Shown here: positions 1,763 to 53,414 of the stretch, piece after piece | Layout of the letters: each line of letters begins with the position of its first letter | Position numbering within the stretch: the stretch's first letter is position 1 | DNA from: a bacterium | GTDB taxonomy: Bacteria > Patescibacteriota > Minisyncoccia > Phycocordibacterales > UBA5272 | Length of the DNA stretch: 64,000 nt | Direction: 5' to 3' | NCBI GenBank assembly: GCA_043765155.1 | Contig: JAYUJP010000001.1 | Span: 19,268-83,267, forward strand | Program-made: the position numbers and the translations under genes | The notes under the pieces: model-generated | Seen by the model: only the letters and a program-made list of their open reading frames with translations | Database searches by the model: none | What the model was told of the DNA's origin: nothing

Positions 1763-2479
1763 ATGAAAAAAGATATACTAAAAAATATTTCGATATTAAT
1801 AGGAGCGACAATAATAGGGCTCAGCATACTTGGGGGATTTTATTTAAATAATAAAATGGGAAATAGTGGCAAAAATGACTTTGTTGATCCTGATTCGTTT
1901 TTCTCAGGACGAGAATTTAAAAAAGAGGAATTTCTGATTGGCAGCGGAAGCAAAAAAGTAATCTTGCTAGAATACTCTGATCTTGAGTGTCCATTTTGCA
2001 AAAAATTACATATAGATACAATGCAAGAAATATATAAAAATTATGGCTCAAAAGTAGACATAGCATTTCGTCATTTCCCCCTACCTTTTCATAAAAAGGC
2101 TAAGACAGAGGCTACAGCCACACTTTGCGCCCGTGATATTGGCGGTCAACAGGCTTACAAAAATTATATAGGTAAAATATATGAAAAAACTCAAGGCAAT
2201 GATAGCCTAGACCTAAATACTTTGCCTGATATAGCAAAAGAGATAGGGTTAAATGTTACCAGCTTTAACTCTTGTATGAGTAATGCTAGTAGCTCAGAAA
2301 CAAAATTAGCGTTAATAGAATCGGATATACAAGATGGTATATCAGCCGGAGTAGAAGGCACACCAAATGTATTTGTACTTATCAAGGATGGACAGGATTA
2401 TAAAAAGTTCACAATTATAAATGGCGCAAGAGATTATAAATATGTCTCAAAGGTTATAGATCAAGCTTTGAAGCAATAA
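1763..2479 (+). CDS. DsbA-family thiol:disulfide oxidoreductase, membrane-anchored, with a CPFC active site.
   Basis: N-terminal TM/signal anchor, and the thioredoxin-fold CxxC motif ECPFCKK followed by a DsbA-like helical insertion. Confidence 0.7.
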   Translation: MKKDILKNISILIGATIIGLSILGGFYLNNKMGNSGKNDFVDPDSFFSGREFKKEEFLIGSGSKKVILLEYSDLECPFCKKLHIDTMQEIYKNYGSKVDIAFRHFPLPFHKKAKTEATATLCARDIGGQQAYKNYIGKIYEKTQGNDSLDLNTLPDIAKEIGLNVTSFNSCMSNASSSETKLALIESDIQDGISAGVEGTPNVFVLIKDGQDYKKFTIINGARDYKYVSKVIDQALKQ

Positions 2480-2505
2480 GACTTTAAGAATTAAAGCTTA
2501 GCTAA

Positions 2506-2540
2506 ATAGCGCCGCCCTACGGGCGGCGCTATTTATTTGT
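2506..2540. terminator. Intrinsic terminator hairpin (AGCGCCGCCC-tac-GGGCGGCGCT) followed by a T-tract.
   Basis: Perfect 10-bp GC stem followed by ATTTATTTGTT. It lies downstream of the DsbA-like gene and, on the other strand, of rpiB. Confidence 0.6.
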
Positions 2541-2571
2541 TACTTATTTTTTGTATTTCTTTATATACTTT

Positions 2572-3072
2572 TTATCTTTCTATATTCTCCACTCTTTTGG
2601 CATGCTTACCCCCAGCAAAATCTGTTGAGAAAAATATCTCTATAGCTTTTTTGCATTCATCTATATCTAAAAATCTAGCCCCAAAAGAGATACTGTTGGC
2701 ATTGTTATGCTCGCGGCCTAATTTTATAATATCAAGATTACCGCCATAATATGTAGTACATCTAACTCCTTTGTACCTATTCATGACTATCGCTTCGCCC
2801 TCTCCGCTACCGCCAAATACAAAGGCTACACTTAGAATGTCGTTCTCAATATCATCAGCGAGTGCCCCGCCAGCTTTGTGTATATAATCAGTATAATCAT
2901 CAAGCTCATTATATACATGTGAGCCCATATCTATAATTTCAAAATTAGACCCCCTATTTTCACTTTTAAATTCACCCTCAAGATATTTCTTAATTTCACT
3001 TTTCATCTCAAGTCCCGCATGATCACAGGCCAGATATATATTTTGTATATTATTTGAATTTAAATTATGCAT
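2572..3072 (-). CDS. rpiB: Ribose-5-phosphate isomerase B (RpiB/LacAB family).
   Basis: N-terminal LACDHAG motif and a conserved central GGSGxGE-like motif (FGGSGEGEAI). The length of 166 aa is typical. Confidence 0.8.
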   Translation of the reverse strand: MHNLNSNNIQNIYLACDHAGLEMKSEIKKYLEGEFKSENRGSNFEIIDMGSHVYNELDDYTDYIHKAGGALADDIENDILSVAFVFGGSGEGEAIVMNRYKGVRCTTYYGGNLDIIKLGREHNNANSISFGARFLDIDECKKAIEIFFSTDFAGGKHAKRVENIER

Positions 3073-3120
3073 ATCTTTTATTTACTACTTATCAACTTGA
3101 TTCTAATTATTTTAAAATAT

Positions 3121-4305
3121 TTATAATAACTTAGCGACTTTTTCTGCATGCATAACAAGGGTATTAGTATATCCCATCTCATTATCATACCAGCCCAAAA
3201 CTTTTACTAGGTTACCGCCAACTACGCGTGTCATCTTGAGATCCGCGATGCTGGCAAAATGTGATCCCTGTATATCACTACTCACTAGCTCCTCATCACT
3301 AGCATCAAAAATATTCTTCCATTTATCCTGCTTTGCAGCATCTCTTAAGATATTATTAATCTCCTCTGTACTAGTTTCCCTTTTGGCGATAAAGGTAATA
3401 TCAACAATGGACCCCGCTGCTACCGGTACACGCATCGCTATACCGTCAAATCTGCCGTCCAGCTGCGTAAATACCTTACCCACAGCAATAGCAGCCCCAG
3501 TGCTACTTGGTACTATATTCTGCGCTCCTGCTCTACCCTCTCTATAATCTTTTTTATTTGGACCGTCTACAATAGACTGGCTTGCTGTATAGGCATGCAC
3601 AGTATTAAGCATTGCCTTTTCTATACCAACAGTAGCGTCGAGTATGGCGATAAGCGGTGATGAGGCATTAGTGGTGCATGAGGCATTAGACGTTATGTCA
3701 CATACGCTAAGCTTGTTTTCGTTTACAGACATGAGCACAGTCTCGCCCATAACTGACTTATCCTCGCCTGCCTTGGCCGGAGCCGAGATTATCACCCTTT
3801 TCGCTCCGCAGATGATATGAACTTTTGCCTTGTCATAACTTGTAAATAGTCCAGTGCTCTCGATAACAATATCAATATTCAAGTCCTTCCAAGGTAGCAG
3901 TAATGGATCTCTCTGTGACAGGAATTTAATTTTCTGGCTACTATCTTTTGTTTTTTTGTCAGGGCTTGCATTTACTTCTACCTTACTTGCGCCGCCTTCG
4001 GCGGCGCTGCTCTTAATTATTAGATATTTCTCCGTCTCACTCACCTCTTCTATCTCCACCTCAAAATTACTCCTCTTATATACTGTGTCATACTTAAGCA
4101 GGTAGGCCATATTATGTATATCACCTAGGTCATTCACAGCGACAACTTCAAAGTTTTCATTTGCTAATGACATTTTTAAAAATGCTCGGCCTATACGCCC
4201 AAATCCGTTGATAGCAACTCTTTTTTTATCTTGAGTTTTTATTTCTTCTTTATTTTCTTCCCCCATAATTAGCGCACTATTTTTTATACTATTTAAAATA
4301 TTCAT
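3121..4305 (-). CDS. gap: Glyceraldehyde-3-phosphate dehydrogenase with a lineage-specific insertion of about 45 aa and an N-terminal extension.
   Basis: NAD-binding motif INGFGRIGR, catalytic-Cys motif ASCTTNA, and a C-terminal WYDNE motif. Confidence 0.85.
   Translation of the reverse strand: MNILNSIKNSALIMGEENKEEIKTQDKKRVAINGFGRIGRAFLKMSLANENFEVVAVNDLGDIHNMAYLLKYDTVYKRSNFEVEIEEVSETEKYLIIKSSAAEGGASKVEVNASPDKKTKDSSQKIKFLSQRDPLLLPWKDLNIDIVIESTGLFTSYDKAKVHIICGAKRVIISAPAKAGEDKSVMGETVLMSVNENKLSVCDITSNASCTTNASSPLIAILDATVGIEKAMLNTVHAYTASQSIVDGPNKKDYREGRAGAQNIVPSSTGAAIAVGKVFTQLDGRFDGIAMRVPVAAGSIVDITFIAKRETSTEEINNILRDAAKQDKWKNIFDASDEELVSSDIQGSHFASIADLKMTRVVGGNLVKVLGWYDNEMGYTNTLVMHAEKVAKLL
3989..4007. 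repeat. Perfect GC-rich palindrome (GCGCCGCC-ttcg-GCGGCGC) embedded in frame inside the gap-specific insertion. It resembles the terminator stems of this genome.
   Basis: It has the same stem family as the intergenic terminators at 1.1, 2.5, 9.0, 11.0 and 50.3 kb. It encodes AAEGGAS within gap. Confidence 0.5.
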
Positions 4306-43885: not shown

Positions 43886-44206
43886 CTACTTATTGAAAAA
43901 AGATTTTATAACGTCTAAAAAGTTTCTGATGGCTTTTGTCTCAGGCAATTGACCTCCAACAGTGTTAAGATTATTGTTTACATTAGTAATAGCATTTTGA
44001 AGACTGCTAAAATTTTCAGTTATTTTTAGCATATACGGCTGAGCGTAATAATACACTCCAAGTAGAGTTCCGATTATAAACAACCAGTACAATATACGCA
44101 TAAAGTTAGCGATGCGTTCACGGCGTAGAAGTGAGCGCAGTATCTCGTTGTTCTCTTGTATCATTTCGTACATCTCGTCTAATTTTTCTTGGTTAGTTTG
44201 TGACAT
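43886..44206 (-). CDS. Hypothetical small membrane protein (1 TM).
   Basis: ORF with a central hydrophobic helix (ILYWLFIIGTLLGVYYY). No family recognised. Confidence 0.35.
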   Translation of the reverse strand: MSQTNQEKLDEMYEMIQENNEILRSLLRRERIANFMRILYWLFIIGTLLGVYYYAQPYMLKITENFSSLQNAITNVNNNLNTVGGQLPETKAIRNFLDVIKSFFNK

Positions 44207-44298
44207 GATTATTTTTGTTTGTCTAAAAAATATTTTATATTATTTTTATAAATTTATATGTTTCTAATTATATCACAAATATGTTAAAATAGAATAAC

Positions 44299-44370
44299 GC
44301 CCTTGTAGTTAAATGGATATAACTGCTCCGTCCTAAGGAGTTATTGTGGGTTCGATTCCTGCCGAGGGCA
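44299..44370 (+). tRNA. tRNA-Arg (anticodon CCT).
   Basis: GCCCTTGTAGTTAAATGGATATAACTGCTCC-GTCCTAA-GGAGTTATTGTGGGTTCGATTCCTGCCGAGGGCA. The acceptor stem has one G-U pair. Confidence 0.75.
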
Positions 44371-44440
44371 CAAAAAATAAACGAAGTGTTTTTAAAAGTC
44401 TCAATTATCCCCACCAATAAAATAAGCCCGATTATTTTAT

Positions 44441-44692
44441 TTGCAAATGAGACGTATTTATGATATTATACTAGGTATGCAATCTCTTATTTTAGCTGCA
44501 AACATAGTACTATCAGTCCTGCTTATCATACTAGTACTAATGCAGCGCGCAAATACTGACGCCGGCGGAGCTTTCTCATCAGAAAGTGTTGGCACATTTA
44601 AAAGACGTGGAGCCGAAAGTCTAATCTACAAATCAACAATTGTAGTATCTATACTTTTTGCTGCGTCACTATTAGCGCACGCATTGTTGTAA
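44441..44692 (+). CDS. secG: Preprotein translocase subunit SecG.
   Basis: The first TM is followed by LMQRANTDAGGAFSSE...FKRRGAESLIYKST and a second TM. This is the SecG pattern LLQxGKGGGxxxxFGG...RG. It lies after the tRNA cluster. Confidence 0.65.
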   Translation: MQMRRIYDIILGMQSLILAANIVLSVLLIILVLMQRANTDAGGAFSSESVGTFKRRGAESLIYKSTIVVSILFAASLLAHALL

Positions 44693-44726
44693 GCTTTAAT
44701 TAAAACAGGAGAATACATTTCTCAAA

Positions 44727-46493
44727 ATGCTTTTAAATAAAGAAGTTTTTAACTCAAAAAGTAATATTAAGAAGTTTCTAATAGTATTAAAAACACTAAC
44801 ACCAGAAAAATCTTTTTATTTTTACTTGTCACTTGTATTCATGCTGATACTTGGATTTTTTGCTATTTCTATTTTTCTAAAAAAGAATTATACCAAAGAG
44901 TCACCTCAGCATAATCAAGTATTAAATGTATACTCAGACGAAAAAGTCAAAAACTTTACTCCTCTTTTTGCTGAGTCAAAAACTGAAAAAATAATATCAG
45001 GACTACTATTTGCTGGGTTAATAAAAAATAACGGAGACTATTATACCATGGACTTAGCAGAGTCTATATATATAAGCGATAGCGGACTAGATATAAAAAT
45101 ACAATTAAAAGATAACTCGAAATTTTCAAATGGAGAAAAGATAACTACTGATGACATTATATATACTTACAAATTGATGCAGAGTTTTGATATAGATAAC
45201 AAGGATAGAGTCAAATATGAAGGATTATCTTTTGAAAAAGTCGATGATTTCAATATGAATATTGCTCTCAAAAAGAGTTACTCGCAAGTTAATAAGCTTT
45301 TGACCCTGGGTATAATAAGTAAAGATCAATATATAGGCGAGAAAATCGGTGACTTTGTTATATCTGATAAAAACTTGAACCCAATATCAAGCGGTCAATA
45401 TACTGTTAATAGCGTCTCTAATCTTAATGGTGTAATAGGAAATATGTCTCTTAAAAATAATAATAAATATTATAACCTTTCTAATTTTGGCAATATTAAT
45501 TTTTATACAGAAAAGTTAGAATCTGACAAAAGTATTATAGACTCATATGTAAAAGGTAATTCTATAGATATTATTCTGAGCGGCGCTTATTCTGAATATC
45601 TAGATACTACTATATATGATACTAAAAGCTATAACACTACTGTAGTCAATAATATATTTCTTAATCCTAGTAAAAATGATATTTTATCCAAAAAGATAAA
45701 TAGAGAATATCTTTATAAAAATATAAATAGGGACTATATAGTCAAAAATATATTAATGAACAATGCTGATACGTCTTTTGATATTATGCCTAATTCTAAA
45801 AATATAAACCCTCTTACTGAGGTGGATATAGAGAAAACTTCTCTTAAATTTACTGATAAGACTTCTATAGCTAGTTCTGGTACTAGCACAGAGCCTCAAA
45901 CGTCCGCTCAGCCTAATGCTAATCTTGTAACATCTATAAAGCTAACATTTTTAAATACCGATACCAATCAAAAGATTTATAACTACTTGCAGCAGACTTT
46001 TATTAAAAATAGTATAAATATAATTAGCGTGCCGGTCAATCAAGATACACTTCAGAGTATAATCAAAAATAGAGACTTTGAAATGCTTATGACCAATATA
46101 AGTATAGAAGATGTGTCTAGCCTATATTCATTTTTGCATTCTTCTCAGAAAAACGCTCCAGGCCTAAATATTACAAATTATATTAGCAAAACTTTTGACA
46201 AAAATATAGAAGTATTAAGGTCAGCGACCAACACAATAGATATAAATAATTCGTTAAGTAGCTTAAGGCAAGAATTTTATGAAGAGTATCCATATATACC
46301 GCTCTACTCAAAGACAAATAAGGTAAATATTACAAAAGAGCTAAAAACAAATACGGAAAATAACACAAGTAATGGCAATGAAGAAAATATATTAAAAAAC
46401 ATAAGCGCAGATTATAAAGAAACAGAATATCTGTACACTTTTTTAGAAAAATATAGAAATATTATTATCAAAGTTAACAAGATAATACATTAA
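44727..46493 (+). CDS. Membrane-anchored family-5 solute-binding protein-like (OppA/DppA-like) extracytoplasmic protein. It has no adjacent permease genes.
   Basis: The N-terminal region LFAESKTEKIISGLLFAGLIKNNGDYYTMDLAESIYISDSGLDIKIQLKDNSKFSNGEKITTDDIIYTYKLMQ fits the SBP_bac_5 N-terminus pattern. The rest is divergent. Confidence 0.45.
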   Translation: MLLNKEVFNSKSNIKKFLIVLKTLTPEKSFYFYLSLVFMLILGFFAISIFLKKNYTKESPQHNQVLNVYSDEKVKNFTPLFAESKTEKIISGLLFAGLIKNNGDYYTMDLAESIYISDSGLDIKIQLKDNSKFSNGEKITTDDIIYTYKLMQSFDIDNKDRVKYEGLSFEKVDDFNMNIALKKSYSQVNKLLTLGIISKDQYIGEKIGDFVISDKNLNPISSGQYTVNSVSNLNGVIGNMSLKNNNKYYNLSNFGNINFYTEKLESDKSIIDSYVKGNSIDIILSGAYSEYLDTTIYDTKSYNTTVVNNIFLNPSKNDILSKKINREYLYKNINRDYIVKNILMNNADTSFDIMPNSKNINPLTEVDIEKTSLKFTDKTSIASSGTSTEPQTSAQPNANLVTSIKLTFLNTDTNQKIYNYLQQTFIKNSINIISVPVNQDTLQSIIKNRDFEMLMTNISIEDVSSLYSFLHSSQKNAPGLNITNYISKTFDKNIEVLRSATNTIDINNSLSSLRQEFYEEYPYIPLYSKTNKVNITKELKTNTENNTSNGNEENILKNISADYKETEYLYTFLEKYRNIIIKVNKIIH

Positions 46494-46512
46494 TAAAATA
46501 ACAATCAAACAT

Positions 46513-48258
46513 ATGCAAAAATTTGGAAGAAGTAACTTTAAACAAAACACAACATTAGTCGACACAAAAAGATCGGCTCATATATCAAACATAAAAGATG
46601 GTGACTACAGGATAATCAATCTTGGTGGTACTGAGGAGTGCGGCAAAAATATGACGCTCATAGAGTATAAAAACAGTATACTAATCATAAATGCTGGTGC
46701 CCAATTTTCAGCTAGCTCAATGCCTGGTGTTGACTTTATAATACCAAATATAAAATATCTCGAGGAAAATAAAGACAAGATAAAAGGTGTAATATTTACA
46801 ACTAGTACTCTGGAGTATAGCGGAGCCTTTCCTTTTATAAATGAAATGTTAAATTTTCCGCGCGTATATGGTAGACATTTTACAAATACACTTATACAAA
46901 AAAGAATTGAGAATAAGGGGCTAATCTGCAAGAACGACTTTATACCTGTAGAGGATAATATATCTCTGAATATTGGTGACTTTAAAGTTAGATTTTCAAA
47001 TACTCAGTCCTCTACTCCAGACTCTATGAATATATCTATAGAGACTATAGAAGGTGATATCACTTATATGAGTGACACAAAGCTAGATAAGAATAATGTA
47101 AAAAATCTTGAGACTTTGCCTAATTTTGAAAATAACACTAAGACACTTTGCCTTATTGCTGACTCACTTAATAGTGAAGTAGGGATAAGTGAATTTGAGC
47201 TGTCTGACACAAAAGAAAAACTTAAGAAAGTATTTGCTGAGACCAAAAATAAAATATTTATAACTACTTTTGCTAATAATATATATCATATTATTAAAAT
47301 AATAGAGCTAGCCAAAGAAATGGGAAAGAAAATAATATTAGACAGCAAAACAGTAGAAGAAAATATATCTAGCGCCCAAGAGATTGGACTTATAGGTAAA
47401 ATAGATGACGTAGTCATAGATATACTTGAAAAAGATAAACATAAATCAAGTGACCTTATATATATAGTAACAGGCGAAGAAGGACGTGAGATGGATACTA
47501 TACTCAAAATAGTCGAGACTGATTACAAGGGTATCAAAATCGAGGACGGTGACATAGTAATAATGGCAACACACCCTATTATACATAATCAGCGTGCAGC
47601 CCAGAACTTAAAAGATGGACTGTCACGTGCCGGAGCTGATACTATACATTATAAGTATAGCGATATACTTATAACTCAATCAGGTAGCGGCGAGGACCTA
47701 GCCAAGATACATCGTGCCCTTACACCAAAATTCTTTATACCTATGGCTGGTTGTCACTATATGTTACGCGTACATGCTGATATAGAGAGAAGACTAGGAA
47801 CCCCTGAAAACCATATCATAATACCTGATAATGGTATGATAATCGAGATACGTGATAACTGTCAGCGTATATCTAACACCCGTGAAAAAGTAGATACCGA
47901 GGTTGTAGTAGTGGATGGGAACAAAATAGGTAAGCTGCATAATGTGGTACTAAAAGATAGAGAAATACTAGGAGCCCAAGGAGTATTCTTTATAATATCA
48001 CTCATAGACATGCGCGGTCATAAGCTGAAAAAAGCTCCGGACCTAGCAACGCGTGGATTTGTATTTTTAAAAGAGTCACAAGAATTATTAGTCGGCGCTC
48101 GTGACATGTCCAAAAATATAATCGAGGAATATCTTTATAAAAATAATCACATAGAAATAGACGACATAAAGGAGGCTCTGCAGTCACAAATAGCCAAATA
48201 CCTTATGCTAAAAACAGCTAAGCAGCCAGTCGTAATACCTATAATTATAAGAGTCTAG
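46513..48258 (+). CDS. RNase J paralog (metallo-beta-lactamase/beta-CASP fold) lacking the canonical metal-binding motifs. Probably catalytically inactive.
   Basis: It aligns along its full length to the downstream RNase J. HGHLDH is replaced by TTSTLEY, HTGD by YMSDT, and SGHA by SGSGED. The TDST-like motif is ADSLN. Confidence 0.7.
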   Translation: MQKFGRSNFKQNTTLVDTKRSAHISNIKDGDYRIINLGGTEECGKNMTLIEYKNSILIINAGAQFSASSMPGVDFIIPNIKYLEENKDKIKGVIFTTSTLEYSGAFPFINEMLNFPRVYGRHFTNTLIQKRIENKGLICKNDFIPVEDNISLNIGDFKVRFSNTQSSTPDSMNISIETIEGDITYMSDTKLDKNNVKNLETLPNFENNTKTLCLIADSLNSEVGISEFELSDTKEKLKKVFAETKNKIFITTFANNIYHIIKIIELAKEMGKKIILDSKTVEENISSAQEIGLIGKIDDVVIDILEKDKHKSSDLIYIVTGEEGREMDTILKIVETDYKGIKIEDGDIVIMATHPIIHNQRAAQNLKDGLSRAGADTIHYKYSDILITQSGSGEDLAKIHRALTPKFFIPMAGCHYMLRVHADIERRLGTPENHIIIPDNGMIIEIRDNCQRISNTREKVDTEVVVVDGNKIGKLHNVVLKDREILGAQGVFFIISLIDMRGHKLKKAPDLATRGFVFLKESQELLVGARDMSKNIIEEYLYKNNHIEIDDIKEALQSQIAKYLMLKTAKQPVVIPIIIRV

Positions 48259-48307
48259 GCTTTTAAATTATTATAAAAATTTATAAAAAAATATTAATAG
48301 AAAAAAT

Positions 48308-50236
48308 ATGCAAAATAACAACAATAAAAATAGTGGCGGATCATATCAAAACAAAAGGCCTGTAGCAGCTCCAAAAAGATTTGAATCAAAAGGTAGCTAC
48401 CCAGCGACTACACCAAAATCAAGTATGCCAAAATCAAATGACATATTAGATGGTATACAGAGAAAAGATTTTAAATCAAAAAGAGATAAAAAAATAGTGC
48501 AGCCAGTATTTGAAATGAAAATGGGTGAAGCAAATGAGACCGCTAATATACCACCTCTTGCTGATGGTGACATACGTATCATACATCTGGGCGGTGTAGA
48601 AGAGATTGGTAAAAATATGTCCATAGTCGAGTATAAGGATACTATTGTAGTTGTAGACTGTGGTATACAATTCTCAGAAGCTTCGACTCCAGGTATAGAC
48701 TTTATACTTCCTAATACCAAGTATCTAGAGGAGAGAAAGGACAAAATTAAAGGTGTATTTATAACTCATGGTCACCTAGACCATATTGGGGCTATACCCT
48801 ATATTATGCCGCGTATTGGTAACCCTAATCTTTATACTAGGAACTTTACTAGCCTAATGATAAGAAAAAGACATGAGGAGTTCCCATATCTTGATCCGCT
48901 CAAAATTAAAATTGTAGAGAAAACTGACGCCATAGATCTTGGTGGTCTTAAGGTTAGCTTCTTTGGAGTGTCACATGCTATACCGGACTCTATGGGTATC
49001 AGAATAGAGACACCGTACGGTGATATAGTTCATACAGGTGACCTGAGACTCGATCATGAGGCCGGCGTACCTAGCGAGCGTGAGCTAAAAAGCTTTGCTA
49101 GCTTTAACGAGAGAAAGACACTATTACTTATGACCGACTCGACTAATTGTGAGAATCCTGGATTTTCTATTTCTGACTCTATTGTGTATAGAAATATAGA
49201 AACTGCTATACGTGATACTAATGGTAGGCTTATAGTCTCTACTTTTTCTTCACAGGTTGAGCGTATGTTATTTATGCTAGAATGCGCCGAAAAATATGGC
49301 AAAAAAGTAGTAGTCGAAGGTAGAAGTATGAAAACAAATGTCGAGGTTACTAGACTTGCTGACATGATGAAAATAAAACCAGAGACTATTATACCAATAG
49401 AAACTATGGATAATTATCCGCCTAATAAGTTAGTCTTGATGGTAACAGGAGCTCAGGGTGAGGACTTTGCGGCACTGGGTCGTATAGGTCTCAAGAATCA
49501 TAAATATATCAAGTTATCTAAATACGATACTATACTTATGAGTAGCTCAATAGTGCCAGGTAATGAAAGGCCCGTACAAAAGTTAAAAGATAATCTCTCA
49601 AGACAAGGGGCGCATCTTATACTCTATAATACAAGCGATATACACTCTTCAGGTCACGCTAATGCTGACGAGCTAGCGTGGATACACAAGGCTATTAACC
49701 CTAAATTCTTTATACCGGTACACGGATATCATTATATGTTAGCAACACATGCTAATATAGCGATGAAGACTTTAGGTATACCAAGAAAAAGCGTAGTTAT
49801 ACCTGATAATGGTATGGTTATAGAAATAAGGGACAAGGGTGAGACCATAACTCATCTAAAAGAATACGCTCCTCGTGACCTACTAGTTGTAGATGGTACT
49901 AGTGTGGGTAAAATAGCCGACGTCATCATCAAAGATAGGCAGAATCTAGGTGATGAAGGTGTATTCTCAGTTATAGTGCTCATCGACTCGTTTACAAAAA
50001 GATTAAAGAAATCTCCAGACATAGCCTCACGTGGGTTCATATATTTAAAAGAATCTCAGGAGCTACTATTTCAAGTGCGCGAAGAGATAAAGCAAATATG
50101 TGAAAAATATCTACGTGAAAATGCCACCATCAACACTGATGACTTGCGTGCTATCTTAAAACTAAAAGTTCAAGAAATGCTAGTTGACGCTACTGCAAAG
50201 AAGCCGGTAATAATGCCAATTATTATTACTATTTAG
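48308..50236 (+). CDS. rnj: Ribonuclease J (5'-3' exo/endoribonuclease) with a Lys/Ser-rich N-terminal extension.
   Basis: Motif 2 HGHLDHIG, HTGDLRLD and the beta-CASP motifs TDSTN and SGHAN. The C-terminal domain is present. Confidence 0.85.
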   Translation: MQNNNNKNSGGSYQNKRPVAAPKRFESKGSYPATTPKSSMPKSNDILDGIQRKDFKSKRDKKIVQPVFEMKMGEANETANIPPLADGDIRIIHLGGVEEIGKNMSIVEYKDTIVVVDCGIQFSEASTPGIDFILPNTKYLEERKDKIKGVFITHGHLDHIGAIPYIMPRIGNPNLYTRNFTSLMIRKRHEEFPYLDPLKIKIVEKTDAIDLGGLKVSFFGVSHAIPDSMGIRIETPYGDIVHTGDLRLDHEAGVPSERELKSFASFNERKTLLLMTDSTNCENPGFSISDSIVYRNIETAIRDTNGRLIVSTFSSQVERMLFMLECAEKYGKKVVVEGRSMKTNVEVTRLADMMKIKPETIIPIETMDNYPPNKLVLMVTGAQGEDFAALGRIGLKNHKYIKLSKYDTILMSSSIVPGNERPVQKLKDNLSRQGAHLILYNTSDIHSSGHANADELAWIHKAINPKFFIPVHGYHYMLATHANIAMKTLGIPRKSVVIPDNGMVIEIRDKGETITHLKEYAPRDLLVVDGTSVGKIADVIIKDRQNLGDEGVFSVIVLIDSFTKRLKKSPDIASRGFIYLKESQELLFQVREEIKQICEKYLRENATINTDDLRAILKLKVQEMLVDATAKKPVIMPIIITI

Positions 50237-50264
50237 TTAACAGAAACAAAAATTAAAAGTAGGA

Positions 50265-50295
50265 AAGCGCCGGCTACGCCGGCGCTTTTATATGT
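50265..50295. terminator. Intrinsic terminator hairpin (AAAGCGCCGGC-tac-GCCGGCGCTTT followed by TA).
   Basis: Perfect 11-bp GC stem downstream of rnj. Confidence 0.6.
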
Positions 50296-50323
50296 TATAA
50301 TATTAGTAAGTATAAAATAAAAT

Positions 50324-51493
50324 ATGTCCTCAGAAATAAAAAAGAAATTATTAGTGGTCGGATTCTCAATCTCAATGCTCTACGCCCTCTACTTTGCGAT
50401 GCCGCTATATCTTAACTCTAGCGTGCTGAGTATATATTTTAGCTCCAGTAATGTATCTATAATATTTGCGGTATCTGCGCTGGTGGCCCTCATTACCAGT
50501 CTTTCTCTTGCCAAGTTTATAAGAAAGCTACATAGCCATACCTTCGCCATTTGTGTTATATTTGTTGGATTTTTTGCTACTCTTGGTCTTGGATATTTTG
50601 AGAATATTTATCTGATTCCAGTATTATTTGCGTTACATTTTTCAACCTCTATATTACTTCTTAACATAATCAATCTTTTTATAGAAGAGTTCACCGAGCG
50701 TGATAATGAGGGATCTACTCGTGGTATATTTTTGACTATGATAAATGCTGGTATACTAATATCTCCCCTCATAGCGGGTCAAATACTCAGCGCCTATGGC
50801 TATAAGTGGGTTTATATAGCTTCCGCGCTCATGCTTATACCTGTAGCTTATCTGATACGTCATTATTATGCTAATATTCCGGACCCAATCTATAAGAATG
50901 TAAATATGAGTATGGCTCTAGATCAAGTTAGGAGAAATAAAAATCTGTACGGCATAATGCTAGCTACTTTTTTGCTTGAGTCATTTTTTACAATGATGGC
51001 CATATATGCTCCGCTATACCTCATGATGAATACCACGATAACCTTGGCACAATATATAGGCATCATAATACCTTTTGCGCTCATTCCTTTTGTGTTGTTA
51101 CCATATGAATTAGGGTATCTGGCCGACAAAAAATTTGGTGAAAAAGAGATGCTAATAACTGGTCTTGTTATTATTATAGCCTGCTCACTACTCTTTCCAT
51201 TTTTGATGACAAGTAGTATTTTTTATCTTTCTATATTCTTATTTATCTCTCGCATTGGAGCCGCCATGGTCGAGACTATGTCACATACTTATTTTTACAA
51301 AAAAGTAAAAGTTGAGAGAGTTTCTGTTATAACTTTATTTAATAATGTTAGGACACTCGCTTATATTATCACACCTATAGTAGGCGGCCTAATCATAGCC
51401 CTAGCCGGTAACATGATGTATGTTTTTGTAGTTTATGCTATAATATCTTCTCTAATCTTGATAAAAGTATCTAAAATAAAGGATACCTTATAA
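50324..51493 (+). CDS. MFS-type transporter (12 TM).
   Basis: Twelve hydrophobic helices in a 6+6 arrangement with a central loop. Confidence 0.6.
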   Translation: MSSEIKKKLLVVGFSISMLYALYFAMPLYLNSSVLSIYFSSSNVSIIFAVSALVALITSLSLAKFIRKLHSHTFAICVIFVGFFATLGLGYFENIYLIPVLFALHFSTSILLLNIINLFIEEFTERDNEGSTRGIFLTMINAGILISPLIAGQILSAYGYKWVYIASALMLIPVAYLIRHYYANIPDPIYKNVNMSMALDQVRRNKNLYGIMLATFLLESFFTMMAIYAPLYLMMNTTITLAQYIGIIIPFALIPFVLLPYELGYLADKKFGEKEMLITGLVIIIACSLLFPFLMTSSIFYLSIFLFISRIGAAMVETMSHTYFYKKVKVERVSVITLFNNVRTLAYIITPIVGGLIIALAGNMMYVFVVYAIISSLILIKVSKIKDTL

Positions 51494-51531
51494 TCCTACT
51501 ACGCTAAAGCTACGCAGGACAAGAAAAAAAT

Positions 51532-52608
51532 ATGAAAGACCTAGAATCAAAAAAAGAAATAACAAGAGAAAATCTACTCATAAAAGCTGAAAAGAATATA
51601 CAAGATATTTTAAATATCTGTATAAAGCATAATACAGAAACTAATAACCCTGAGCATAAAAATAAAGCTCTTGTTATATATGATACTGATTATCAGCTGA
51701 CAAATATACTCACAGGGACTTATAAAAAGATTTTGCCCGACGCGACTTTTATCGAGTTCAAAGATGATAACAAACAAGAAATAATTAACTCTTTTGACAC
51801 CATGAATCCTGGTGACCTTGTAGTTATGCTACAGAGCACCAACTTTTTGCTCAATGAGTTTCGTATAAGACTACACCTTTTTAATAAAAACTTAAAAGTC
51901 GTCGAGCATATGCATCTAGAGCGTAACACTCCTGATCAGTGGGAGACATACATAGACTCGCTTGCTTATGATACATCTTGGTATCCAGTTGTTGCACCCG
52001 CTCTCAAAAATAAATTAGATAATTCTAAAATTTTAAATATAGTAACCGGAGCATCAGAGTCTGACACTGCCCTATTAACAATATCTGGCCCACTAGAGGA
52101 TGCTAAGCTTAATATTGGAGATTATACCGGTATGAATAATGTTGGCGGTACATTCCCGATTGGTGAGGTCTTTACCGAGGTGCAGAATTTTGAGGATATG
52201 AACGGTGAAGTATATATATATGCCTTTGCTGATAGTGATTTTAATATTAGCATGCATGAGCCGTTCAAAATCATAATAGAAAATGGACTAGTCACAGGCT
52301 ATGGCGATAATGCGCCTACTAGCTTTATTAATATATATAATCAGGTAAGTGGTCACGAGCGTCCGCTAATACGCGAAGTTGGTTTTGGTCTTAACAAAGC
52401 TATAACCAAGGAGAAATATCTCAATGATATCACCGCCTTTGAGCGTATACTAGGCTCACACCTTTCACTAGGTGAAAAGCATAGTGTCTACAAAAAAGAA
52501 GGTATGCAAAGTAAAAAGACAAAGTATCATGTGGACCTATTTCCTGCTATTATCTCAGCTGAGGTTAATGGTGAAGTTATTTTTAAAGACGGGAAATATG
52601 TGCTGTAG
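51532..52608 (+). CDS. Peptidase M29 (aminopeptidase T/S)-like protein.
   Basis: GTFPIGEVFTEV resembles the M29 NIPxGEVFTAP motif. The C-terminal KTKYHVDLFP...DGKYVL resembles M29 SMVHVDWM...G.W. Confidence 0.5.
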   Translation: MKDLESKKEITRENLLIKAEKNIQDILNICIKHNTETNNPEHKNKALVIYDTDYQLTNILTGTYKKILPDATFIEFKDDNKQEIINSFDTMNPGDLVVMLQSTNFLLNEFRIRLHLFNKNLKVVEHMHLERNTPDQWETYIDSLAYDTSWYPVVAPALKNKLDNSKILNIVTGASESDTALLTISGPLEDAKLNIGDYTGMNNVGGTFPIGEVFTEVQNFEDMNGEVYIYAFADSDFNISMHEPFKIIIENGLVTGYGDNAPTSFINIYNQVSGHERPLIREVGFGLNKAITKEKYLNDITAFERILGSHLSLGEKHSVYKKEGMQSKKTKYHVDLFPAIISAEVNGEVIFKDGKYVL

Positions 52609-52637
52609 ATTGTATTTTAAATATATTGTACTAATTA

Positions 52638-53414
52638 CTAAATAGCAGCATCATTTTTTATATTCATTTGAGCTTTGTACTTCTCAATAATTTCAGGATA
52701 TTTACCCTCTTTACACTCAGATATAAACTTATTCATACTTTCAGAATCTTTGAACCTCATATAAGTCAAAGCATCCTGGCACACAAAATTTATATCTAAT
52801 TTTCCAGATGTTTTAATATTTATATCAAATGTTTTGAGAGGGTTTGATTTTACAATACTCTGAGCCTCCTGATATCCTTGACTATAGTCAAAATCCCAAC
52901 GAGGCGGTAAAGCAAATACGTAAATATTATTTCTCCCTAACTCACTAGCAGCAAATGGTGCAGCTGATACAGAAAAATTGCCAGCAGTATAAGAAATCCA
53001 CTGATTGATACTAAATACAAGAACAGGAATATCCTCATACGGTAAAGCAGGAGTCCAGTTTGGATTTCTTATTAAGAATTTAGGGCCCATCTGCTTAGTA
53101 CTAGTAGCTTTTAATGAGTTTCCTTCCCAAGTACTACTTACAACTGAATACCCTTTCCAGCTGTCAGGCATAAAAAAGTTAAAACCGAGATTTTGATTGC
53201 TGTATACTACAGGATTATTAGAATTTTCACTAGTAGAAGAGGCATTATTATTAGAAATTGGAATATTAGCAGGTAACACATTTTTATTTTTGAAGTACTG
53301 CAAATATAGAATAGATCCCAGCGTGACAACAATTACTAAAGTTAATAGGTAAATTATTTTATTTTTGTTCATATATTTAATTGTAGCACAAAAATAAAAT
53401 TTTTTGTCAAGCAT
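52638..53414 (-). CDS. Hypothetical secreted or membrane-anchored protein.
   Basis: N-terminal TM anchor (IIYLLTLVIVVTLGSILYL), then an Asn/Ser-rich linker and a globular domain with Cys pairs. Confidence 0.4.
   Translation of the reverse strand: MLDKKFYFCATIKYMNKNKIIYLLTLVIVVTLGSILYLQYFKNKNVLPANIPISNNNASSTSENSNNPVVYSNQNLGFNFFMPDSWKGYSVVSSTWEGNSLKATSTKQMGPKFLIRNPNWTPALPYEDIPVLVFSINQWISYTAGNFSVSAAPFAASELGRNNIYVFALPPRWDFDYSQGYQEAQSIVKSNPLKTFDINIKTSGKLDINFVCQDALTYMRFKDSESMNKFISECKEGKYPEIIEKYKAQMNIKNDAAI

Follow-up and report, generated by a model that had tools for sequence, protein, structure and literature searches.

Patescibacteria have some of the most streamlined genomes known. Why would such a genome keep, immediately upstream of an RNase J gene, a second copy in which most of the metal ligands have been replaced? 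We addressed this question for one locus within a 64-kb stretch of DNA that was analysed as a whole (the window). Patescibacteria have kept only a few ribonucleases, RNase J among them (PMC12641178), so that RNase J probably has a central part in their rRNA maturation and mRNA decay.

Two adjacent RNase J paralogues

The locus contains the following two genes, with two Pfam-defined domains of the upstream gene given below them:

46513..48258, + strand: gene A (psiRNJ), an RNase J paralogue of 581 aa without the canonical di-metal site
48308..50236, + strand: gene B, a canonical RNase J of 642 aa with all catalytic motifs present
47248..47607, + strand: beta-CASP domain of gene A (PF22505, E 2.5e-21, residues 246–365)
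47947..48255, + strand: C-terminal domain of gene A (RNase_J_C, PF17770, E 3.6e-19)

The two proteins align end to end with 39% identity and 63% positives over 572 residues (E 3e-146), which bears out the initial annotation of the open reading frames as adjacent, collinear RNase J paralogues of similar length. Gene A has full-length homology to RNase J across three domains (MBL, beta-CASP and C-terminal), placing it in the family; phmmer aligned its residues 27–581 to 3zq4 and 6k6s with E-values of 1e-84 to 1e-86. Both proteins match the Pfam families RNase_J_b_CASP and RNase_J_C; Lactamase_B, Lactamase_B_2 and RMMBL match gene B and not gene A. Similarly, gene B scores 455.4 bits against NCBIfam TIGR00649, above the curated cutoff of 400, and gene A scores 347.3 bits, below it. 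Gene B begins with a basic low-complexity extension of ~85 residues. An identical copy of the gene A protein is found in at least four independent assemblies, indicating that gene A is not an assembly artefact.

Gene A has lost most of its metal ligands

We read the catalytic motifs from an alignment to B. subtilis RNase J1 (3zq4) and 56 canonical relatives. Every catalytic position is kept in all 56 relatives and in gene B, whose motif II (HGHLDH) is at 48767-48784. The alignment located the corresponding regions of gene A as follows:

46684..46698, + strand: motif I region, IINAG; the conserved Asp is replaced by Asn60
46798..46818, + strand: degenerate motif II, TTSTLEY (canonical HGHLDH)
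47002..47022, + strand: motif III region, TQSSTPD; the ligand His is replaced by Ser166
47065..47079, + strand: motif IV region, YMSDT; the bridging Asp is kept (D188)
47665..47691, + strand: motif B/5'-phosphate loop, ILITQSGSG (canonical IHSSGHANA)
47740..47760, + strand: motif C region, PMAGCHY; the ligand His is replaced by Ala412

Motif II, which is HGHEDH in J1, reads T97-S-T99-L-E101-Y102 in gene A, corresponding to H74T, H76T, D78E and H79Y in B. subtilis J1 numbering. The alignment to J1 and the canonical relatives thus confirms the initial reading of TTSTLEY as a replacement of HGHLDH. In the motif B loop, HxSGH has become L386-I-T-Q-S390, with both His residues gone; this loop had been read as a change from SGHA to SGSGED, which was correct as to the loss of the motif B His and slightly shifted in its alignment. 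By contrast, YMSDT had been taken to represent loss of the motif IV sequence HTGD, and this does not hold, since the motif IV Asp is retained as D188. Among 24 clade members, the residue at this position is Asp in 17, Asn in five and Ser in two, and the acidic residue of motif II (E or D) is kept in all 24.

Altogether, five of the seven metal ligands of gene A are now non-ligand residues, in addition to the two missing motif B His residues, and gene A lacks the metal-binding motif set of an RNase J as judged over motifs II, III, IV, B and C. Alignment to RNase J structures, which had been suggested as a check, indicated that these ligands are truly replaced and that the motif IV Asp is still present. 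Hence the claim that all catalytic motifs had been lost is right for most of the ligands and too strong for motif IV, where D188 is kept, and for D78E, which is conservative. These substitutions give good support to the view that canonical binding of the two catalytic metals is not possible for gene A. We predict that nuclease activity is absent for gene A and present for gene B.

Two further observations concern these positions. The losses in motifs III and C of gene A are real and were absent from the initial annotation. Cys43 and Cys414, which are conserved in the crown group, were considered as a new metal site; we rejected this candidate because the deeper-branching members P0013, P0015 and P0017–P0019 lack one or both residues.

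The degenerate copy is conserved, syntenic and under purifying selection

The motif HxHxDH is absent from 20 of the 120 protein clusters closest to gene A and present in the other 100. In neighbour-joining trees with a simple distance correction, the ~20 dead-copy clusters (43–100% identity) form one clade with 100% bootstrap support, and this clade joins its own active partners and a single-copy relative with 93% support. An RNase J with HxHxDH lies directly downstream, on the same strand, in 16 of 16 loci with a dead copy of this clade (L001–L004, L006–L016 and L042, with L004 and L012 referring to a single contig). All full-length clade members read, down to ~40% identity, have an unbroken reading frame, apart from L042, where the dead copy is split into two overlapping ORFs by either assembly error or real decay. 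The proposed check on conservation in relatives therefore found the dead copy intact and syntenic, with two exceptions: L042, and the single-copy relative L005, which has the order secG-SBP5-RNJ and no dead copy.

The AF2 monomer model of gene A has a pLDDT of 83.6. Foldseek searches with this model gave top matches that were all RNase J (E 5e-51 to 1e-36), the best being the RNJ2-RNJ1 integrative model 9a5v, and the catalytic core matched RNase J structures with TM 0.89–0.91 and an rmsd of ~3 Å. Estimates of dN/dS were 0.037–0.14 for the dead copy and 0.017–0.076 for the active partner, with dS near or above 1 in most pairs. Protein distances among dead copies were ~2-fold those among active partners, and the ratio of dead-copy to canonical distances differed by domain: 2.77 for MBL-N, 2.44 for beta-CASP, 1.41 for MBL-C, and below 1 for both the linker (0.82) and the C-terminal domain (0.92). 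Overall, the catalytic domains of the dead copy evolve ~2.5-fold faster than those of the partner. Its best-conserved part is the linker together with the C-terminal domain, on par with the active partner, and the motif B loop and catalytic cleft are its most variable and fastest-evolving parts. In D. radiodurans RNase J, the C-terminal domain is needed for the dimer and for full exonuclease activity (PMC4477667). We conclude that gene A is a pseudoenzyme, with its catalytic residues lost, its predicted fold kept and purifying selection acting across species. The proposal that a non-catalytic copy has been retained is upheld by the orthologue clade, the tandem synteny, the dN/dS values of 0.04–0.14 and the predicted intact RNase J fold.

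Origin and recurrence

The dead-copy clade lies inside the Patescibacteria RNase J sequences, well separated from B. subtilis J1 and the homologues in Bacillota context (L063 and P0216). We considered whether gene A is an orthologue of rnjB, which encodes Bacillota J2, and rejected this because the neighbour-joining trees place the dead copies beside the Patescibacteria active partners. In phmmer searches, gene A scored higher against S. epidermidis J1 (294 bits) than against J2 (250 bits). The pair would have arisen by tandem duplication of what was then the only RNase J gene, in the ancestor of a Nomurabacteria-like clade (Paceibacteria, Patescibacteria).

Further tandems of a degenerate and an active copy were found at L061, L062, L064, L069 and L070. 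The dead copies of L061 and L062 fall together with the active partners from their own tandems (bootstrap 96%, or 95% on the catalytic core alone) and have only 3% support for grouping with the clade of the window, indicating an independent origin of that tandem. We therefore rejected a single ancient duplication giving rise to all degenerate copies in the case of L061/L062 (95% versus 3%, catalytic core). The dead copies of L064, L069 and L070 cluster at only 67% bootstrap, in a test that left out the active partners of L069 and L070. It is possible, and we propose it only tentatively, that Patescibacteria have several times independently evolved an obligately asymmetric RNase J made of an active and a dead protomer encoded by adjacent genes.

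Genes A and B are probably co-transcribed

We next consider the surroundings of the pair, which contain the following features:

44441..44692, + strand: secG, the first gene of a conserved block secG - SBP_bac_5 - (psiRNJ) - RNJ (Pfam SecG, E 1.5e-12)
44727..46493, + strand: family-5 solute-binding protein homologue (Pfam SBP_bac_5, E 6.7e-22)
48259..48307, + strand: AT-rich spacer of 49 nt between A and B, in which no terminator-like hairpin was found
50263..50289, no strand assigned: terminator-like hairpin with a 12-bp stem containing 8 G-C pairs (pattern match)

The position of secG is shared by L001, L003, L005, L061 and L062, and the SBP_bac_5 gene, which ends 19 nt before gene A, is upstream of the RNase J gene or genes in relatives with and without the dead copy. 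The only strong terminator-like hairpin is 27 nt past the stop of gene B, and is probably the end of the transcription unit. Based on gene spacing and pattern scans, genes A and B are probably co-transcribed. A promoter scan gave 48 candidates compared to 40.8 ± 6.0 in shuffled sequence, i.e. no excess over chance, and we therefore do not claim a promoter. Rfam and tRNA scans of the 64-kb window found six tRNAs only, none of them tied to the A-B pair.

A proposed non-catalytic partner of RNase J

We favour, with moderate confidence, a model in which psiRNJ is a dead RNase J paralogue that most likely serves as a heteromer subunit modulating the active product of gene B. According to this model, the motif B/5'-phosphate loop and the two-metal centre's His ligands have been lost from psiRNJ, which would have kept the RNase J fold, notably the linker and C-terminal domain that form the dimerisation part of characterised RNase J. 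The products of A and B would form a heterodimer or heterotetramer that pairs an active site with a dead one, where psiRNJ may act as a structural or specificity subunit that tunes the activity of the active protomer or its choice of substrate. The tandem arrangement with its 49-nt gap, the presence of a hairpin only past gene B, and the conserved linker and C-terminal module are consistent with such a partner role. We also considered the R544/D449 salt bridge of B. subtilis J1/J2 as an interface marker. The equivalent residues are Lys570 and Lys474, respectively, in A, B and all relatives; with Lys at both positions the marker is not transferable, and we rejected it.

It is rather unlikely that psiRNJ instead works alone, as a monomer or psi-psi homodimer, in the capacity of a non-catalytic RNA-binding protein uncomplexed with the gene B product that would, for example, occupy or protect 5' ends or compete with RNase J for substrates. 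In favour of this reading are the entire RNase J fold, predicted to be intact including the beta-CASP/MBL cleft, and the strong purifying selection along the full length of the protein, and conservation of the C-terminal domain fits a psi-psi homodimer as well as a heteromer. However, the parts with which characterised enzymes contact RNA and the 5'-phosphate (motif B loop and cleft) vary most and evolve fastest, and the adjacency to an active copy is strict and has evolved repeatedly, a pattern for which stoichiometric co-production of two subunits is the simpler explanation. The structural evidence for the partner model applies equally to a dominant-negative brake, whereby the heteromer would lower 5'-3' decay and tune RNA half-life in slow-growing cells. 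Dimerisation sets the exo/endo balance of D. radiodurans RNase J (PMC4477667), such that a dead protomer could shift that balance. We regard a brake as improbable; Firmicute J2, the sole precedent studied so far, is a poorly active partner that J1 requires or is stimulated by (PMC3937233; bioRxiv 10.64898/2026.05.27.728192), and lower expression would cost a streamlined genome less than keeping a 1.7-kb gene.

We attach very little weight to the idea that gene A is still an enzyme that uses Asp188, Glu101 and other residues in a mono-metal or metal-independent reaction, or on a new substrate. The frequencies of the motif IV Asp (17 of 24) and the motif II acidic residue (24 of 24) are in keeping with it, as is a subclade (L013, L014 and P0122) that retains H76, D78, H79 and the motif C His. 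Moreover, D175A in motif IV is the one single substitution that abolishes activity of D. radiodurans RNase J (PMC4477667), suggesting that the motif IV Asp is the most critical residue. Nevertheless, positions 74, 76, 142, 368 and 390 are occupied across the clade by chemically unrelated residues (S, N, T, G, K, R, L, Y, A and others), no alternative conserved ligand set was found in the clade alignment, and the Lactamase_B and RMMBL matches are gone from gene A. Finally, loss of catalytic residues, evolution ~2-fold faster than that of the partner and the split copy in L042 would be expected if gene A were decaying into a pseudogene or resulted from faulty annotation or assembly. This explanation is effectively refuted by the intact frame of the other full-length members, the dN/dS of 0.04–0.14, the identical sequence in several independent assemblies and the confident structure prediction.

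Comparison with known systems

The favoured partner model resembles J1/J2 of Bacillota (B. subtilis, S. aureus and S. epidermidis), a pair of full-length paralogues with the same fold as A and B, one of them with a degenerate motif II. This motif is HGHEHA in S. aureus J2 and HGHDEN in B. subtilis J2, and the active site of Firmicute J2 is dispensable, J2 acting by complexing J1 (PMC3937233; bioRxiv 10.64898/2026.05.27.728192). The systems differ in origin, with gene A having arisen by a separate duplication inside Patescibacteria, and in the extent of degeneration: J2 retains most ligands and residual activity, whereas gene A has five of seven ligands replaced and neither motif B His. They also differ in that A and B are adjacent and apparently in one operon, whereas in B. 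subtilis rnjA and rnjB lie apart from each other, and in that the heteromer has been demonstrated for J1/J2 and is inferred for A/B. The initial description of gene A as a J1/J2 analogue with complete active-site loss is therefore apt as a functional analogy and overstated as to the loss, given D188.

CPSF73/CPSF100 and INTS11/INTS9 likewise combine an active MBL/beta-CASP RNA nuclease with a paralogue without metal ligands, and both pairs are joined through their C-terminal domains. By contrast with A and B, they are eukaryotic, operate within large multi-subunit machines and belong to another beta-CASP branch (Foldseek TM ~0.5, 12–14% identity), so the comparison is by analogy only. Single-copy RNase J of T. 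thermophilus, D. radiodurans, M. tuberculosis and H. pylori shares the three-domain architecture and length, and homodimerises through its C-terminal domain (PMC4477667). Gene B is an ordinary representative of this group, whereas gene A lacks the di-metal site and falls under the TIGR00649 cutoff.

Implications for RNase J biology

Dead copies are annotated in databases simply as "ribonuclease J" or "ribonuclease", such that active RNase J genes are over-counted in gene-content surveys of these genomes. In the literature searched we found no report of a dead RNase J in CPR/Patescibacteria; one paper names RNase J only as the structural match of a CPR MBL protein (PMC9145738). That such streamlined genomes keep a 1.7-kb dead copy under strong purifying selection, and that degenerate and active copies stand in tandem in several lineages, at least one of them independent, argues for a real and sizeable benefit gained from a non-catalytic partner. 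The pair provides a natural, independent means of testing whether Firmicute RNase J2 is a cofactor and not a nuclease, as recently proposed, and extends the active/pseudoenzyme pairing of eukaryotic beta-CASP nucleases to bacteria. If an obligately asymmetric RNase J has indeed evolved several times in Patescibacteria, these tandems would be to bacteria what CPSF73/CPSF100 and INTS11/INTS9 are to eukaryotes, and would offer "clean" systems, with a partner free of residual activity, for dissecting the long-puzzling J2-type subunit. A half-dead dimer would then be functionally superior to a homodimer for beta-CASP RNA nucleases, with possible gains in substrate selection, exo/endo switching or the docking of other factors.

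A tandem RNase J paralogue lacking most di-metal ligands

The initial annotation described tandem paralogous RNase J genes, and our analysis confirmed both the arrangement and the coordinates of the genes, which we refer to as A and B:

46513..48258, + strand, gene A, ORF of 581 aa
48308..50236, + strand, gene B, ORF of 642 aa

An alignment spanning both proteins from end to end has 39% identity (572 residues, E 3e-146). Pfam RNase_J_b_CASP and RNase_J_C matched both; Lactamase_B, Lactamase_B_2 and RMMBL all matched gene B, with no match in gene A. Against NCBIfam TIGR00649 (RNase J; cutoff 400 bits), gene B scored 455 bits and gene A 347, below the cutoff, and gene A also lacks the full set of catalytic motifs expected of the family. 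Both proteins matched solved RNase J chains over their full length (E 1e-84 to 1e-86 for A and about 1e-115 for B).

In Deinococcus radiodurans RNase J, His84, His86 and His153 bind one metal and Asp88, His89 and His403 the other, with Asp175 bridging both (PMC4477667). We compared ligand positions in Bacillus subtilis J1 numbering, using a J1 reference rebuilt from a HMMER alignment printout (residues 4–555) and 56 canonical relatives, all of which keep every ligand position (56/56).

Active-site positions of B. subtilis J1 and the residues of gene A
H74: T97
H76: T99
D78: E101 (conservative)
H79: Y102
H142: S166
D164 (motif IV): D188 (kept)
H364 and H368 (motif B, 5'-phosphate loop): L386 and S390
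H390: A412
Motif I Asp: N60

Most ligands are thus replaced, but the claim that every metal-binding motif had been lost was slightly too strong, since the motif IV Asp is kept and D78E is conservative. Likewise, the motif B histidines are gone, but the reported replacement of SGHA by SGSGED was a one-register misreading of the alignment. At the level of sequence, the original observation is right in substance.

The degenerate copy is conserved next to an active partner

Among the 120 closest protein clusters in a collection of 5.8 billion proteins, 100 carry HxHxDH (motif II of canonical RNase J) and 20 do not, the latter being 43–100% identical to gene A. Going by the labels of the source records, some of which ('Saccharibacteria') are probably wrong, the named sources of degenerate clusters are Patescibacteria, and those of the closest canonical clusters are Nomurabacteria, Paceibacterota or Parcubacteria. 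All degenerate copies of the clade lack most ligands, with replacement residues that vary between copies, and a protein identical to A occurs in several separate assemblies. An HxHxDH-bearing RNase J gene lies directly downstream, on the same strand, in 16/16 loci with an A-type copy (L001-L004, L006-L016 and L042; L004 and L012 being one contig); about 40 other Patescibacteria loci have one canonical RNase J gene each. L005, a single-copy relative (Nomurabacteria MAG), has the order secG-SBP5-RNJ-...-MFS-pseudouridine synthase, where SBP5 encodes a family-5 solute-binding-protein homologue. Because L005 carries the same gene block minus A, gene A looks like a tandem-duplication insert.

In neighbour-joining trees (Kimura-type distances), dead copies were monophyletic (bootstrap 100) and joined a clade of their own active partners plus L005 (bootstrap 93), with branching inside the dead-copy clade broadly matching that of the partners. 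Protein distances were ~2-fold larger for the dead copy (median ratio 1.96). dN/dS was 0.037–0.14 for the dead copy and 0.017–0.076 for the partner, values that are rough except for L001/L007, the only pair with dS < 1. A confident AlphaFold2 model of gene A (mean pLDDT 83.6, pTM 0.75) retrieved RNase J structures as its best matches throughout (E 5e-51 to 1e-36), and its predicted catalytic core superimposed on RNase J with TM 0.89–0.91 and rmsd of about 3 Å. The fully supported clade, the low dN/dS and the predicted RNase J fold uphold the view that the upstream copy is retained. We conclude that gene A is a conserved gene rather than a wreck, and almost certainly a dead paralogue under selection.

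At two loci a gene looks interrupted. At L042:1859-3759, the dead copy is broken into two overlapping ORFs (1859-2446 and 2299-3759), and an intact active gene follows; the cause is either an assembly-error frameshift or genuine decay in one lineage. L067:2796-3746 (ena:ERZ28573911 scaffold_7616) has an identical A protein, and its downstream active gene is called from 3399 (350 aa) rather than 2796, which may reflect an error in the sequence or a disrupted gene in this assembly.

Constraint is retained on the dimerisation module

We split the alignment by B. subtilis J1 domains, with approximate boundaries based on the J1 structure. For each domain, we divided dead-copy divergence by active-copy divergence.

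Psi/canonical distance ratio by domain
N-terminal MBL part: 2.77
Beta-CASP: 2.44
C-terminal MBL part: 1.41
Linker: 0.82
C-terminal domain: 0.92

Domain boundaries in D. radiodurans RNase J are analogous; without its C-terminal domain, that enzyme no longer forms the homodimer and its exonuclease activity is impaired (PMC4477667). These ratios indicate that constraint in the dead copy is relaxed on the catalytic machinery and kept on the module that mediates dimerisation. This is our main argument, an indirect one, that gene A continues to pair with a protomer of RNase J.

Locus organisation

The window is AT-rich (G+C ~26–39% in 2-kb windows). SBP5 (44727..46493), preceded by secG (44441..44692), ends 19 nt before gene A, and an AT-rich spacer of 49 nt, in which a hairpin scan found no hairpin, separates A from B. 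The sole strong terminator-like hairpin in 44200-52800 lies 27 nt past the gene B stop:

50263-50289, scored on both strands, terminator-like hairpin with a perfect 12-bp G+C-rich stem, between gene B and the MFS gene

With gaps of 19 and 49 nt and a strong hairpin only after gene B, secG-SBP5-A-B looks, from spacing, like one transcription unit. A promoter scan gave a count not above background.

The linkage of RNase J to secG and SBP5 persists across distantly related Patescibacteria, with or without the dead copy (window 44441-50236, L001, L003, L005, L061, L062 and L069, the last without secG); a functional reason is not obvious. After the MFS gene, L001 and L004 have an RluA-type pseudouridine synthase gene, where the window has an ORF (51532-52608, 358 aa) with no Pfam match. 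The first ~85 codons of gene B (48308-48560) encode a basic low-complexity N-terminal extension, in which N, K, S and P are abundant and which is absent from B. subtilis J1; extensions of this kind, differing in length, occur in canonical relatives, and gene A has only ~25 extra residues.

The window genome uses the standard code (TGG 0.77% of codons; stops TAA 31, TAG 9, TGA 1). In L003:1-13707 (ena:ERZ26695388:ctg156495_74.25x_c, a 755,644-bp contig), which has the dead-active tandem, UGA is apparently a sense codon: 8/11 called genes contain 1–5 in-frame TGA, TGG occurs 0–2 times per gene, and all stops are TAA or TAG. In the active RNase J, TGA stands in the alignment where 'DELAWIHK' has its conserved Trp (for example, L003:8974-8976), suggesting that UGA encodes Trp, as in code 4, in this Paceibacteria-type genome.

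Degenerate copies in other lineages

A wider search, through 1.84 billion representatives clustered at 50% identity, added full-length RNase J homologues that have lost several ligands, including five on Patescibacteria-type contigs whose dead copies are 28–31% identical to gene A:

L061:6001-9771 (P0163), secG-SBP5-degenerate-canonical
L062:6001-9658 (P0145), secG-SBP5-degenerate-canonical
L064:6001-9022 (P0159), rpsP-degenerate-canonical
L069:5001-8727 (P0209), SBP5-degenerate-canonical
L070:1-3128 (P0138), canonical-degenerate, order reversed (active copy first)

The L061/L062 dead copies clustered with the active copies beside them (bootstrap 96; 95 for the catalytic core alone), and only 3% of replicates placed them with the dead clade of the window. 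Their motif II replacements are TDGAMSH and TEASRTH, versus TTSTLEY in gene A. We take L061/L062 to represent independent duplication and decay, given their grouping with their own partners and since long-branch attraction would pull the opposite way. The mutual relationship of L064, L069 and L070 was poorly supported (bootstrap 67).

A stand-alone degenerate homologue, P0176 (L063:6001-7680), came from a food-fermentation metagenome and has Bacillota-like neighbours (PTS, GcpE, GntR). Its motif II is strongly degenerate ('TSG--KY') and it has Gln for the motif III His; the Asp of motif IV and the histidines of motifs B and C are all present. We consider it a probable J2-type protein, with greater degeneration than in the studied ones.

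A proposed partner subunit

Of the systems studied, Firmicute RNase J2 comes closest. Staphylococcus aureus J2 has HGHEHA at motif II; mutating its active site gave no phenotype, whereas deleting the gene did, and its authors proposed a structural role in a J1+J2 complex (PMC3937233). B. subtilis J2 has HGHDEN, its H76A mutant resembles wild type, and it stimulates J1-dependent decay of an mRNA subset via inter-subunit contact (bioRxiv 10.64898/2026.05.27.728192). The J1/J2 analogy drawn in the initial annotation survives as a functional resemblance; gene A is not an rnjB orthologue, since in the trees it branches within Patescibacteria RNase J. Unlike J2, gene A has a far more degraded di-metal site and adjoins its partner gene, and the degenerate-active arrangement appears to have arisen more than once. 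Eukaryotic CPSF73/CPSF100 and INTS11/INTS9 pairs are more distant likenesses. An RNase J partner without catalytic function is already a known concept; a search of a literature library with most subscription journals outside its coverage turned up no description of a dead RNase J in CPR/Patescibacteria.

That gene A is a pseudogene or artefact is scarcely credible for a gene so conserved. Residual or novel catalysis via D188/E101 would draw on the kept Asp and the conservative substitution, but with most ligands replaced we regard it as very improbable. It is unlikely that A acts as a free RNA-binding protein or a psi-psi homodimer, and a dominant-negative brake, itself a variant of the heteromer model, seems more doubtful still. 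We somewhat favour a heteromer of A and B, by analogy to Firmicute RNase J2 and from conservation, domain constraint and recurrence: A would be co-produced with B and assemble with it, cutting would be carried out by B only, and A would serve as a structural or specificity subunit.
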